DNA of 64,000 nt, taken from positions 341,528 through 405,527 of the forward strand of contig CAYTPV010000001.1 of the NCBI GenBank assembly GCA_964440115.1, read 5' to 3'. Below the pieces are notes generated by a model. That model made no database searches. It saw only the letters and a list, made by a program, of their open reading frames with translations, and had not been told where the DNA came from. The position numbers were made by a program, and so were the translations under genes. Shown here piece by piece: positions 1,776 through 60,029 of this stretch (positions are counted from its first letter, which is position 1; each line of letters begins with the position of its first letter). This DNA is from an uncultured Oscillospiraceae bacterium. GTDB taxonomy: Bacteria > Bacillota > Clostridia > Christensenellales > CAG-138.

Positions 1776-2075
1776 TTATCCCGTACTGTGGGTGGACGCC
1801 AGTTTCGGCTTGAACTGCCTTTGCCCACAGTTCGGCATGGTCACGCTGCGTCGCCGAATACGGCTTCCTTGCGTTCCCTGCCTCACTGGACTTCCGGCTC
1901 GCTTCATCCCGCACTGCGGGCGCTTTCCCAGGTTCCCACCCAGGGCATCCGCAAGCGGATGGCCGTTTCGGCCTGCAAACGCTTCACTGGAGCGTTTGCT
2001 GCCTTCGGCACCGGCCTCAACCCCATTACCACATTGGCACTGAATGAAGGTAGGCAGGCCGAGTTTATTTTTCAG
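1776..2075. repeat. Copy A of a dispersed, structure-conserving intergenic element (candidate ncRNA; class unknown)
   Basis: There is no credible ORF; both-strand ORFs are Arg/Pro/Ala-rich and lack an RBS. Nested hairpins include 1785-1792/1824-1831, 1853-1864, 1908-1920, 1946-1961, 1961-1973 and 1975-1999. Core 1837-1920 aligns to the reverse complement of 59659-59741 with compensatory pair changes. Confidence 0.45.
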
Positions 2076-2120
2076 CTCCAAAAGAACGAGCACCCTTACG
2101 GGTGCTCGTTCTTTTGGAGC
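2075..2120 (-). terminator. 21-bp perfect hairpin after tRNA-Thr (bidirectional terminator-like)
   Basis: GCTCCAAAAGAACGAGCACCC / loop / GGGTGCTCGTTCTTTTGGAGC. The loop reads GTAA (GNRA) on the minus strand. The inner 12-bp GC-rich stem is followed by TTTTGG on either strand. The outer arm overlaps the tRNA 3' end. Confidence 0.6.
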
Positions 2121-2190
2121 TGATGAACAGATTCGAACTGTCTACCTCCTCATTACCAATGAGGTGCTCTACCGACTGAGCTACATCAGC
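2115..2190 (-). tRNA. tRNA-Thr (anticodon GGU), CCA encoded
   Basis: I folded the reverse complement GCTGATGTAGCTCAGTCGGTAGAGCACCTCATTGGTAATGAGGAGGTAGACAGTTCGAATCTGTTCATCAGCTCCA by hand into a cloverleaf. It has a 7-bp acceptor stem, a D-arm GCTC/GAGC, an anticodon stem CCTCA/TGAGG with loop TTGGTAA, and a T-arm with loop TTCGAAT. Confidence 0.92.
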
Positions 2191-47027: not shown

Positions 47028-48239
47028 TTATTGCACAACGGTGATGCCGTCTACGATGAAGTTCCAGCTCGGAGCGCTCTGCTTCTCAACGTATTCTTCG
47101 CCGGCCTTGAGATCAACTGTGACCTTGTTGCCGCCAAAGTCAACGCCTTCGCCCTTGAGCGGTCCAACGAACACTTTGAGTTCGCCGGAGATCAGCTTGG
47201 CGCGAGCGGCTTCTATGGCTTCCTTGGTGCCCGGCGCTATGACCGCGTCGTTGAGCGCGGAAATATTCACAACGCCTTCCTTAAGGCCGCCGGAGAAATC
47301 GGTGGGGATTTCCTTGCCTTCAGCAACGCTCTGCACGGCCATGGTGAGGTAAACGCTCCAATCCCAAACAGCTGAGGTCAGAGTGGCCTTGGGGGCAGCG
47401 GCGATCATGTCGGAGTTGTAACCAACACCCCATACGCCGTTGGCTTCCGCGGTGGTCTGGGTAGCAGTGGAATCAGCATGCTGGCCCAGCACGTCGCAGC
47501 CATCGTCGATGAGAGCCTGTGCAACCTGCTGTTCTTTGGTGGGATCATTCCACGAATTGGTGTACTTGACTTCCATGGTTACCTTGGGGTTCACGCTCTT
47601 TGCGCCAAGATAGAAGGCGGTGAAGCCGCTGATGCATTCTGCAAAGGGCATGGCGCTTACATAACCGAGTTTGTTGGTCTTCGTCTTGAGGCCCGCAGCG
47701 ATACCGGAAAGGTAACGGGCTTCATAGATGGAGCCGAAGTAGTTGTGGAAATTCTTAAGTCCACTGCCCGCAGCCTGGAAGCCGGTGGCATGGCAGAATT
47801 GGATTTCCGGGTTTTCCTTAGCGGCGGCGAGCATATAATCCTCATGGCCGAAGGAAGTAGCAAAGATGATGCTGCAGCCAGCTTCGATCAGCTCTTTGAT
47901 GGCGGTAGCACAGGTATCATCCTCGGGGATGTTGTACTTGCTGATGACCTGCTCGGGCTTGAGGCCGAGGTTGGCGATCATCTTCTGGGTACCCTTGTCG
48001 TGGTTATAGGTATAACCGCCATCACTGGGATCCGAAATGTGGATGAAGCCGACCTTAATGGTTTCCAAGCTGAGGCCTTCAGCCGCGGGGGCTTCGGATG
48101 CAGCGGGGGCTTCCGTCGCAGCGGGGGCTTCGGATGCGGCCGGAGCGGGTGTCGCGGCAGGCGCGGGCGCAGGCGCTGCGCAAGCCGTTGCGGCAACTAC
48201 CATTGCTACCGCCATCAATAGTGCGATGAGTTTCTTCAT
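47028..48239 (-). CDS. BMP-family (PnrA/Med-like) ABC substrate-binding lipoprotein
   Basis: Lipobox AATAC, an Ala/Pro/Glu repeat linker, then IKVGFIHISDPSDGGYTYNHDKG, typical of BMP family proteins. Confidence 0.88.
   Translation of the reverse strand: MKKLIALLMAVAMVVAATACAAPAPAPAATPAPAASEAPAATEAPAASEAPAAEGLSLETIKVGFIHISDPSDGGYTYNHDKGTQKMIANLGLKPEQVISKYNIPEDDTCATAIKELIEAGCSIIFATSFGHEDYMLAAAKENPEIQFCHATGFQAAGSGLKNFHNYFGSIYEARYLSGIAAGLKTKTNKLGYVSAMPFAECISGFTAFYLGAKSVNPKVTMEVKYTNSWNDPTKEQQVAQALIDDGCDVLGQHADSTATQTTAEANGVWGVGYNSDMIAAAPKATLTSAVWDWSVYLTMAVQSVAEGKEIPTDFSGGLKEGVVNISALNDAVIAPGTKEAIEAARAKLISGELKVFVGPLKGEGVDFGGNKVTVDLKAGEEYVEKQSAPSWNFIVDGITVVQ
48085..48138 (-). repeat. 3 x 18-nt in-frame tandem repeat inside the BMP lipoprotein linker
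   Basis: GCGGGGGCTTCGGATGCA / GCGGGGGCTTCCGTCGCA / GCGGGGGCTTCGGATGCG on the plus strand. It encodes the (S/T)EAPAA hexapeptide repeats. Confidence 0.8.
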
Positions 48240-58900: not shown

Positions 58901-59376
58901 AAGCGCGAGGGGAACCGGAAGCTCCGCCGGATGTGGATACGACGGTGGATATCCCCATCGACGCGCACATCCCCAAGAGCTACATCAAGAGCGAGGTGCA
59001 GAGGCTTTCCATGTATAAACGCATCGCGCTCATTACGGGGCGTTCCATGCTGTTCGACGTGCAGGAAGAAATGGAGGACCGCTACGGCGATATCCCCGCC
59101 GCCACACAGAACCTCATGGATATCGCGCTTGTTAAGGCGCTGTGCGGACGCGCGCAGATATTGACTCTGACCGTTCGCGAAGGTATTGCACGCATGGCAT
59201 TCCACTCGCAGGCACAGCTTGATGGCGCGCGCATGCTGCAGGCCGCTGCCGCTTACGGCGCGCAGATACTGCCCGGCGACACCGTTTCTCTGCTGTACAA
59301 GAAATCCGAAGCCGATGTAGAGGAAATGCTGCACGCGCTTCTGCCGCTTCTCGAAACACTGTGCGGATGCATATAA
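55942..59376 (+). CDS. mfd: Transcription-repair coupling factor
   Basis: 1144 aa with a CarD-like domain (GDLVVHETHGIGRF), DEAD-box helicase motifs (GDVGYGKTEVALRAA, VIDEEQRFG) and a TRG region. It overlaps the pth stop. Confidence 0.95.
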   Translation: MTEQTHPLLQVLKESPEYNRLEEILTGAEGPAAAFGLPEAHRAHVFAALARERGGLFIASGEQAAEKLYQLSSALNPDIVLLPARELPLVNAYAASGEGAKTRIASLIRLALQKRIGVIVSAEAALQRLAPPEVLRHAAHTLKLGGIHPPRELLRQLSDAGYEPVELVEGPGQAALRGDILDIYPPHAQQPCRVEFFDDEIDRMSLFDPVSQRSLERVTEILLPPATEAPQDAAVIARALLAIHGAKGFDAQRTAFEQGHACPGAETLLPVLYEGTYSIFDYLPADAPILLEEPHRVEEAAEAASRLFMQSVTAMLDRGEGIAEQADLQMTADALFRLLHTPRTGLLFTLTRSFTRIRIRESVQFDARPAPQYPGERAELARDIALARRTGAAILLFAGAHAQRVQQQLLDEDCETARAETLTRLPVRGEALILDESLPQGFVYPSLRLTVLTEAELFGFTRTAARKRQSNKPRLMFSELRPGDLVVHETHGIGRFVGVEALTVQDNTRDYLLMEYMGGDRLYIPTDQLDRVQKYVGSDDEPKLSKLGGSEWQRQVSRAKSAVKELAFDLAKLYATRQDTQGFAFSHDTPWQRQLEERFPYTETPDQLQSIEEIKRDMESGRVMDRLLCGDVGYGKTEVALRAAFKAVQDSKQVAFLVPTTILAQQHYNTLSTRFSGFPVRVALLSRFKSAQEIKQTKQALMNGQVDVVVGTHALLSKDVKFKDLGLLVIDEEQRFGVGHKEQIKTLKTNVDVLTLSATPIPRTLHMSMIGIRDMSIIDTPPEDRYPVQTYVLEYSDILLCDAVRKELSRGGQCYIVYNQVHRLERFAEHLRAMLPEVSVACAHGQMNERALERVMLDFMEERYNVLLCSTIIENGLDIANVNTLFVLEADRMGLSQLYQLRGRVGRSSRLGYAYFTFMRDRALTEVAQKRLMALTEFAQFGAGREIALRDLEIRGAGSLLGAQQHGHIADIGYEYYTKLMAAAVREARGEPEAPPDVDTTVDIPIDAHIPKSYIKSEVQRLSMYKRIALITGRSMLFDVQEEMEDRYGDIPAATQNLMDIALVKALCGRAQILTLTVREGIARMAFHSQAQLDGARMLQAAAAYGAQILPGDTVSLLYKKSEADVEEMLHALLPLLETLCGCI

Positions 59377-59406: not shown

Positions 59407-59900
59407 GGTCACCGCGTTGTTCGGTGCTCGGTTTCCTGCTACGCAGGAAAGCTGTCGCCCCAAACAACGCTTCAAGGTGTCATTTTGCACCGCACATGTC
59501 GCTGCAAAATGACGGATTAAAAGTCTCTGATGCATGAAGACCGTCTGCATATGGGCGCGGGAAGCGGAGCCGCATGTTGGTCAGAGCATGCCTCGTGATT
59601 TTCGCAAGGGATTCAAACTAACTCGTATAACGAGGGCGCGGGGAGTCGAAGTCGCGCGCCGCCTGTGGCGGATGAAGCGCTGCGGAAGACCAGTGAGTTA
59701 GGGAGCGCAAGAAACAGCTTGCTGTGACACAGCGCGACCATAACGAACTGCGAAGCCCTCCCGCTTTATAATAAAAAAATCTGCGGCCACGACGGTCCAC
59801 AGGCCTAGTGCCCGAGGCGTCCCCCGCCGAGGGCCAGGCGGCGATACTGATTTATTTCGTAGCGGTGCAACACATTGATACTTCATTTCACTCTAAACTG
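59407..59900. repeat. Copy B (composite) of the dispersed structured intergenic element; core 59659-59741
   Basis: The reverse complement of 59659-59741 aligns to 1837-1920 at about 62 of 84 positions by hand, with five compensatory pair swaps. The left part carries a GGTTTCCTGC-TAC-GCAGGAAA hairpin and the CACATGTCGCTGC box inside an 11-bp stem (59480-59514). Confidence 0.5.
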
Positions 59901-60029
59901 TAAAATGAAGGATTTTATATTCCCCTTCATTTTCCATAGTTTCCACCGATACTGTATATATGGGCCGAAAACCGCCTTGAACCGGCGGTTTGTTTCATGT
60001 TTATTCATTGGATATCCCCATGCCACGCA

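Follow-up and report, generated by a model that had tools for sequence, protein, structure and literature searches.

What fills the 300 bp beside the tRNA-Thr gene of an uncultured clostridium, where no gene is evident, and why does a similar sequence recur, inverted, elsewhere on the same contig? The question arises from a 64-kb stretch of contig CAYTPV010000001.1 (GCA_964440115.1, an uncultured Oscillospiraceae bacterium), which at its full length is called the window below, and in which a preliminary description had marked positions 1776-2075 as a gene-free copy of a dispersed, structure-conserving element. We find there a small two-hairpin repeat (copy A), with a counterpart behind mfd (copy B). 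The element jumps, as one exact and recent insertion in another locus demonstrates, and judged from its sequence it appears to represent a new, previously undescribed repeat family. Between the GntR stop codon (1753) and tRNA-Thr(GGT) (2115-2190, minus strand) there was indeed no credible gene, the open reading frames (ORFs) of 83 to 111 aa overlapping on both strands of GC-rich DNA. When 1837-1920 was aligned globally against 59659-59741 in reverse complement, exactly 62 of 84 columns were identical, the figure reported earlier, and each of the five compensatory swaps first listed (ACGC/GCGT vs GCGC/GCGC, GCCG/CGGC vs ACAG/CTGT, and CCCGC/GCGGG vs CCGCC/GGCGG) was verified. Three more bring the compensatory swaps between copies A and B to eight: GGCA/TGCC vs GTTA/TAAC contributes two, and the second hairpin (D2) contributes one in its outer pair. 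The invariant blocks CTCACTGG-N-CTTCCG-NNN-CGCTTCATCC are exact in both copies and occur at no other site in the window, and the pattern had no match in 100 window shuffles with up to three mismatches permitted. Of the 300 bp originally assigned to copy A, 1828-1938 (~111 nt) belongs to the element; the rest of 1776-2075 does not, as similarity to copy B and to all other copies ends there.

The element measures ~105 to 115 nt and consists of two adjacent irregular hairpins, D1 then D2, followed by a short C-rich tail. D1 reads CAGT / TC / GCAA / T / AG / TC / variable stem-loop / TC / CT / TTGC / TC / ACTG, and D2 reads GGC / TTCC / GCC / TC / GC / TTCAT / CCGCC-ACA-GGCGG / C / GC / TC / GGC / TCC / GCC. 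The base of D1 is conserved and its tip variable, whereas D2 is nearly invariant. The two hairpins are dissimilar except for a shared motif present three times in all, in which a 5'-side TCGC faces a 3'-side GCTC. The motif sets a TC/TC mismatch beside two G-C pairs and on the complementary strand becomes tandem G-A/A-G. Pairing was assessed on a MAFFT alignment that had not been fitted to structure. Standard pairs filled 95.1% of cells compared with 82.4% in column shuffles (0 of 500 shuffles reached the observed value), changes on both sides were found in 17 of 29 pairs, and sliding the 3' partners by 1 to 3 columns as a control lowered pairing to 29 to 50%. RNAalifold independently yielded the same helices, including outer D2 pairs not spotted by eye, such as pair 68-112 (GC 14, AU 5, UA 1, CG 1). 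With more than 30 copies sharing the two-hairpin fold and covariation far above the shuffled and slid controls, the earlier view of a dispersed element selected for a fold, as RNA or single-stranded DNA, rather than for a protein is borne out.

These copies were recovered by pattern scans and a covariance model and lie in uncultured Clostridia of gut metagenomes. An exact-pattern scan of one genome per species returned nine loci, all in metagenome-assembled genomes (MAGs) of uncultured Clostridia/Bacillota and two of them in a single Candidatus Pelethousia MAG. A looser scan of metagenomes added 18 loci, mostly from gut samples, strikingly many of which were within 100 bases of a contig end; viral contigs scanned with a 24-base pattern gave no match. 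The covariance model, R1, was built from 21 non-redundant copies and scored full-length copies at 96 to 116 bits, with interrupted or truncated copies lower. It also recovered copies missed by the patterns, among them a tandem pair in L016 and, in L001, three in a stretch of 8 kb (L-numbers are labels of the loci and contigs compared here). Using cmsearch with R1, copy A was placed at 1825-1940 (96 bits, E 6.5e-22) and copy B at 59639-59753 (101 bits). A candidate third copy at 48133-48215 (19.9 bits) was rejected as a false positive in GC-rich, low-complexity coding sequence, namely the Ala/Pro-rich linker after a lipoprotein signal peptide, and a search with the covariance-model filters off found no real copy in the window beyond A and B. 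By its FtsK homologs, the window organism falls close to Feifaniaceae-like Clostridia. The identical sequence is found in Logan assemblies of run DRR182650, whose contigs break off within tRNA-Thr and, in the case of L036, at the copy B edge, and exact-protein look-ups for GntR and an SH3/CAP protein returned the same strain only (Logan DRR182650), with no empty site for either window copy. A full-text literature search for four conserved-core strings returned no paper.

A decayed protein gene, a conserved small peptide, or chance similarity between GC-rich spacers could also be imagined, since long open frames span the core on both strands and one copy is translated in frame within a helicase (L004, below). 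These coding and chance readings are, however, excluded. The D1 tip is 15 to 34 nt long (15, 16, 17, 24, 26, 27, and 31-34; 71 nt where another repeat has inserted) and the core 91 to 109 nt; neither varies in steps of three, so that no conserved reading frame is possible. Conservation is base for base without a third-position pattern, substitutions are paired across helices, and a search with the 44-aa peptide encoded by the element gave a single 71-aa match, while the failure of the block pattern to appear in any of the 100 shuffles speaks against chance. Nor does the element belong to a known RNA family, in agreement with the preliminary description. All 4227 Rfam families applied at the gathering threshold recovered tRNA-Thr alone, and at E<=10 on both strands nothing fell on the core of the window copies, L008, or L025; lenient scans of the same four sequences gave just chance microRNA-, small nucleolar RNA-, and small-RNA-like matches on terminator hairpins. 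Neither an Rfam family, a decayed gene, nor the end of a known insertion sequence (IS) or MITE (miniature inverted-repeat transposable element) was found, and the paired changes exceeded the controls.

Direct evidence for movement comes from a copy inside an SNF2-type helicase ORF (gene L004:1860-3581). The closest homolog, P0002 on contig L029, shares ~98% DNA identity with the L004 gene and lacks the element, as do the other helicase homologs examined (76 to 83% identity), and in the comparison of L004 with L029 the element corresponds to one gap, exactly 105 nt long. The sequence is GGATTCGT^CGGCAATGAT (^CGG) at the empty site and, at the filled site, GGATTCGT, then the insert TGGGACGG...GCGAACTG, then CGGAAATGAC; as the flanking bases differ from the bases at the insert ends, the boundaries are unambiguous and cannot be shifted. 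In its own orientation, the insert runs from CAGTTCGC to GGCTCCGTCCCA, i.e., D1 plus D2 and nothing more. Comparison of the filled and empty sites showed no target-site duplication, and there were no terminal inverted repeats, the element starting with CAGTTCGCAAT and ending with GGCTCCGYCCCA, ends that are not mutually complementary. The insertion is in frame and adds 35 aa between the conserved LTGGFV and GNDE..SAKL motifs. An outer helix (P1), in which a G-rich 5' flank pairs with the C-rich 3' end, was considered as a part of the element and discarded because the empty site puts the G-rich 5' part outside. Such an exact presence/absence polymorphism favors a mobile DNA element whose hairpins are needed for movement over a dedicated RNA gene.

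The CG at the junction is already present in the empty site and hence belongs to the target, not to the element. Across copies, C was found at -2 in 25 of 26 and a purine at -1 in 23 of 26, the earlier bases being pyrimidine-rich, and insertion is directly 3' of YYCR^. Approximately half of the copies end in CCCA or CCA, which resembles the YYCR target and may explain the head-to-tail tandem copies in L016 and L008. Further copies were internally deleted (L003 5726-5786 and the distal copy in L030), truncated (L008 95-214), or nested, a different small repeat having inserted into D1 of the L007 copy, and several contigs terminate in or at the element.

The L004 helicase gene has acquired three small insertions despite otherwise being ~98% identical to its relative. 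The second, at L004:2499-2660, is an unrelated ~162-nt insertion relative to L029 that has inverted ends (CCTAAAATGTTGA ... TCAATATTTTAGG) and breaks the helicase ORF, and the third is an 18-nt small hairpin, CCGGGAGGCCCGGTGCCA, inserted in frame. A second small GC-rich repeat family (..TCGGCGGGRGACGCCTYNGGCACTWGGCC..) was found just upstream of copy B (window 59800-59840, minus strand), in L007 (7138-7173 and 6974-6987), where it occurs in the D1 loop of the L007 copy, and at L009:7398-7411, downstream of the L009 copy. Its presence in the L007 D1 loop indicates that different small repeats nest in one another in these genomes.

The element is thus dispersed, retains its hairpins by compensatory change, occurs in both orientations among unrelated genes, and has inserted exactly and recently at one site. 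We consider that it is probably non-autonomous mobile DNA, moved via a folded single strand like IS200/IS605 or repetitive extragenic palindromic (REP) elements. Exact insertion without duplication or inverted ends, a fixed target left outside, hairpins at the ends, and conserved mismatches in the stems together form a 'peel and paste' signature, as in IS200/IS605 and in REPs with their REP-associated tyrosine transposases (RAYTs). By this route, an HUH-type tyrosine transposase, related in kind to IS200/IS605 TnpA or to RAYTs, would act in trans to cut the folded single strand and rejoin it, and the threefold TCGC...GCTC mismatch motif and the invariant D2 sequence would be the features it recognizes. 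Both window copies would be old insertions in tolerated 3' intergenic DNA, A in a tRNA-Thr pseudo-copy and B behind mfd, and, like REP or ERIC elements, they may have a secondary role as RNA hairpins within host 3' untranslated regions (UTRs); mobility and RNA function are not mutually exclusive.

Comparison with known systems supports classing the element as a new family of familiar selfish, structured, non-autonomous repeats and not as a new RNA gene; it represents no new category of element. IS608 and ISDra2 have no terminal inverted repeats, generate no target duplication, and insert just 3' of a short specific sequence that is left outside. The element resembles a derivative of such IS200/IS605 transposons in lacking inverted ends and duplication, in inserting 3' of a fixed target outside itself, and in having hairpins at both ends, and a folded single strand is a plausible substrate. 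No Y1 HUH transposase (TnpA) or TnpB bounded by such ends turned up in ~330 kb, although a pattern spanning the D1-D2 junction would miss an ORF located between the hairpins. MITEs (Correia, ERIC, RUP, BOX, and similar repeats) are defined by terminal inverted repeats and target-site duplications. Like them, the element is small (cores of 91 to 118 nt across the copies), non-coding, multi-copy, dispersed, and structured, may be co-transcribed with its neighbors, and breaks assemblies; it differs in having neither inverted repeats nor a duplication, whereas the 162-nt insertion in L004 does have inverted ends.

The likeness to REPs and their doublets (REPINs) is broader. RAYTs need unpaired residues in the REP stem to cleave single-stranded REP DNA, and REPs are also found within genes (PMC3733652); Firmicutes are unmentioned in that survey. 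In common with REPs and REPINs, the element is a short GC-rich imperfect palindrome, mainly in 3' intergenic DNA and in either orientation, with conserved unpaired stem residues, clusters or mosaics with other repeats, occasional in-gene copies, and a short CCA-like tail (PMC3733652), and a related D2 module in Vescimonas (below) sits among GTAG-tagged REP-like hairpins. REPs are palindromes of 20 to 40 nt tagged at the end by GTAG or CGTC. In the core, by contrast, GTAG is absent, and CGTC precedes the inner hairpin only in some copies with a long P3, whose stems are 4 to 5 bp, not 8 to 9. The two hairpins are unlike, hence no inverted doublet of one 20-40-nt unit as in a REPIN, and ~20 nt of invariant sequence is not simply stem. 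No RAYT gene flanked by copies was found in windows of up to 10 kb around copies. Literature searches on MITEs, REPs, and RAYTs in Clostridia provided background only. Rickettsia palindromic elements (RPEs) are palindromic repeats of ~100 to 150 bp with in-frame insertion in protein genes (PMC10969869), which recalls the 105 nt (35 aa) placed in frame between conserved motifs of the SNF2 helicase. The in-frame case is single, though, core length is not tied to multiples of three, and the host clade is unrelated. The recurrent in-frame insertion with a conserved peptide that characterizes RPEs was not seen, the peptide search giving one match.

Several observations weigh against movement by this route. 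One filled/empty pair was obtained, L004/L029. In contrast to IS608, D1 starts at the first base rather than subterminally, and D1 and D2 are not near-identical. A tblastn search of the window and loci (~330 kb) gave no transposase match, which is weak evidence given an approximate IS608 TnpA query and the small amount of DNA covered. The 127 flanking ORFs matched 133 Pfam families, of which the top 25 by members have ordinary housekeeping functions, and these 25 included no recurrent partner or transposase family. The apparent copy number per genome is modest, with two good copies in the 64-kb window. Wobble pairs outside two doubtful pairs are undecisive on the strand that folds (14 G-T vs 12 A-C). 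Lastly, the copy beside tRNA-Thr has been kept at 81% FtsK identity with compensatory differences, which fits a function at the locus better than a dead insertion.

Retention of this kind is consistent with an alternative in which the element is a multi-copy structured RNA, either a 3'-UTR stabilizer or terminator-like module or a protein-binding small RNA, spread by transposition being secondary. We regard this, the main rival reading, as unlikely. Its functional strand would most likely be the purine-rich complement, in which the TC/TC loops become tandem G-A/A-G and the two hairpins dominate. Consistent with this, covariation is coupled with near-invariant unpaired sequence, different species keep the element beside tRNA-Thr, with compensatory changes, and each window copy is bracketed by a stop codon and a terminator. 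The predicted RNA fold of the complement was the more stable in 20 of 21 copies (mean -40.6 vs -34.2 kcal/mol), its minimum-energy fold reproduced the consensus almost always, and its z-scores against dinucleotide shuffles were better (-2.35, -1.57, and -3.95, where the motif strand gave -0.87, -0.79, and -1.74); under DNA parameters, each of the two strands was modestly better than shuffles. The complement is also the sense strand in the L004 helicase, at the 3' end of the L010 ParA-like gene, in the mfd 3' UTR, and on the tRNA-sense strand, and in L009 and L017 it faces the neighboring upstream ORFs, which from their sequence read as hcp and purC. However, orientation relative to neighboring genes is mixed, and the pyrimidine-rich motif strand is the one presented to the upstream transcript by copy A, where it follows GntR, and by L002, L006, L013, and L014. 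A structured RNA is further disfavored by the promoter scan, which found no element-associated promoter, by the insertion into coding sequence in L004, by the absence of a matching Rfam family, and by the two doubtful P3 pairs (20 G-T, 0 A-C), which favor the opposite, pyrimidine-rich strand. Which strand folds is not settled by stability or wobble counts.

At the tRNA-Thr locus, the reading of the element as mobile DNA can be set against its surroundings. The 5' flank of copy A (1797-1827, plus strand) is a decayed duplicate of the tRNA-Thr 3' half, comprising a T-arm-like CAGTTTCGGCTTGAACTG plus CCTTTGCCCA, with CCCA, a YYCR target, as its last bases. It is collinear with well-preserved tRNA 3'-half duplicates in L032 (AGCTGATGAACAGATTCGAACTGTCTTTGCCCG) and L030. 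The core follows at 1828-1938 (plus strand; from cmsearch and folds), starting with CAGT and ending with CCCA according to the empty-site boundaries. Its D1 (~1828-1888) is formed by CAGT/ACTG, GGCA/TGCC, GG/CC, ACGC/GCGT, and the inner hairpin GCCG-AATA-CGGC, and its D2 (~1889-1934) by the terminal CCCGC-ACT-GCGGG and weak outer pairs, with the 3' tail CCCA. An 87-nt hairpin-rich insert (1925-2011, plus strand) is specific to the window lineage, being a single gap in the alignment with the L030 and L032 orthologs. It comprises four or five short GC-rich hairpins and splits the original 3' arm of D2, for which its first 14 nt substitute, including a CCAGG that pairs with CCGG of the 5' arm; the segment had no other match in the window or the retrieved loci. 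The remnant of the original D2 3' arm and element end lies at 2012-2024 (plus strand; CGGCCTCAACCCC vs CGCCTCCGTCCCC in L032). The spacer at 2025-2077 (plus strand) begins with ATTACC, the complement of the tRNA-Thr anticodon loop GGTAAT, and is homologous to the distal-unit spacer of L032. A predicted bidirectional intrinsic terminator hairpin at 2078-2117, CCAAAAGAACGAGCACCC-TTAC-GGGTGCTCGTTCTTTTGG, read from the sequence, would end both the tRNA-Thr transcript and the GntR transcript running through copy A; it is absent from a simple terminator scan, whose tail rule it does not satisfy, and the hairpin-type chance matches to Rfam land on it. The tRNA-Thr(GGT) gene itself (2115-2190, minus strand; ARAGORN, Rfam 71.8 bits) has a promoter, TTGCAA-17-TATAAT, at 2252-2224 in the promoter scan.

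The element occupies the corresponding position next to this tRNA in three relatives, L030 (FtsK 97%), L032, and L033 (FtsK 81%; GCA_036677445.1), and two others, L031 and L034 (FtsK 83 to 84%), have neither tRNA nor element. In L030 and L032, a near-perfect tRNA-Thr 3'-half duplicate with its own terminator precedes the core and ATTACC follows it, and two to three tandem units of core, ATTACC spacer, terminator, and tRNA-Thr 3' half lie beside the intact tRNA-Thr(GGT) (L030:3230-3736 and L032:790-1258); the window has a single such unit. The distal core of L030 lacks the D1 interior (CAGT|CCCTGCCTCACTGG), a palindrome-type deletion. Orthologous cores differ by many paired substitutions; L030 has AA/TT in place of the first TC/TC loop and CAGC/GCTG in place of CAGT/ACTG. 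Such paired differences could mean that selection acts at a fixed locus or that other copies have replaced the original ones. Immediately upstream of the tRNA-linked array, L030 holds an IS with DDE_Tnp_1 and DUF772 domains (1566-2984) at the place occupied by GntR in the window, hence synteny breaks at this array.

Flanking of the core by a tRNA-Thr 3'-half duplicate and ATTACC, its repetition in tandem units, and the joint presence or absence of tRNA and element upstream of FtsK in all five relatives would also be expected if copy A represented, either entire or as a scar, a very small element that integrates site-specifically at tRNA-Thr and restores it, the core being its attachment or recombination module. 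This accounts for the surroundings of copy A only, and we hold it to be very improbable. Copy B and more than 20 other copies have no adjoining tRNA fragments, the L004 insertion is the bare 105-nt core, none of these loci encodes an integrase, and the DNA bounded by the tRNA halves in L030 and L032 amounts to ~230 nt with no ORF. When the core was removed in silico, the remaining sequence became collinear with the real tRNA (T arm, 8 nt, ATTACC), which places the core in a tRNA-Thr pseudo-copy, as expected from insertion into a pre-existing duplicate. The tandem units are most simply explained by unequal crossing-over between tRNA halves.

Copy B (59641-59750, minus strand; D1 at 59750-59691 and D2 at 59690-59645) is inverted relative to copy A. 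It lies 265 nt past the mfd stop codon (mfd ends at 59376) and before a plus-strand terminator at 59969-59991, and therefore in the mfd 3' UTR, antisense to mfd. GC skew in the window tracks gene orientation and is uninformative on replication-strand bias.

A BLAST comparison of a consensus-like copy with plasmids returned one record, the 861-kb replicon pMM35_01 of the cultured Vescimonas fastidiosa MM35, where 10 places match D2 at ~94%. The replicon is in fact a secondary chromosome, since groEL, dnaK, ftsH, and rnf genes are located on it. Its D2 sequences (CCGGCTCGCTTCATCCGCCACTGGCGGCGCTTCGCCG) follow a first hairpin unlike D1, and the sites lie in intergenic regions of 0.7 to 1.1 kb (L035 14904-15973 and 19809-20526) that are mosaics of at least four repeat families, including hairpins ending in CCCCTAC, the complement of the GTAG tag (REP-like; GGGCCGATGTAGGCATCGGCCCCTAC). 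Four gut 'Bacteriophage sp.' contigs also carry D2, which together with pMM35_01 marks D2 as a conserved module of a wider superfamily. One further pMM35_01 hairpin, GATTGCCACAGCCAGTGTGCGCACTGGCTTCGCAATGAC, has CACTGG and TTCGCAAT in common with D1.

A more radical possibility, which we consider distinctly unlikely, is that the module is the substrate, and possibly an RNA or DNA cofactor, of an undescribed single-strand transposition or recombination system in gut Clostridia, in which a novel protein would read the 20 nt of D2 and the mismatch motifs. The 3'-UTR and tRNA-Thr copies would then have been recruited as functional RNA via the purine-rich strand with its three tandem G-A motifs, and such recruitment would account for orthologous copies keeping their fold by compensatory change.

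If the favored reading, a mobile repeat moved through a folded single strand, is correct, the few bacterial repeats that move without inverted ends or duplications gain a family defined by its covariance model, its exact ends, and its target rule, in a little-studied and largely uncultured clade of gut Clostridia related to Feifaniaceae and Ca. Pelethousia. Its consequences would include broken metagenome assemblies, spurious ORFs, in-frame protein insertions, and confusion with an RNA gene. The near-invariant D2 and the repeated mismatch motif offer a handle for tracing the mobilizing enzyme, and the relative in a cultured strain with a closed replicon makes the transposition and RNA questions testable.

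Two associations with larger or neighboring sequences were also noted. In one clade (L002, L006, L009, and L025; ~220 nt downstream of the core), the core sits in a larger conserved unit of ~380 nt. A second long hairpin, CATGG..CCATG, belongs to this unit, as does a bidirectional terminator (TCGAAAAAG-stem-CTTTTTCGA). The unit ends in AGGCTGTCGAAAAA / TTTTTCGACAAGCT, inverted repeats matching at 12 of 14 positions, and may be a composite or a different element invaded by the core. These inverted ends had been considered as the core's own ends in L025-type copies and were rejected as such, as they belong to the ~380-nt composite. In five human gut loci (L010, L012, L021, L023, and L026), a ParA-like gene adjacent to the element appears as two ORFs of 104 and 156 aa. 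Its final codons (..AEWAELSAASGG*) come from the element, indicating that the insertion replaced the native 3' end of the gene.

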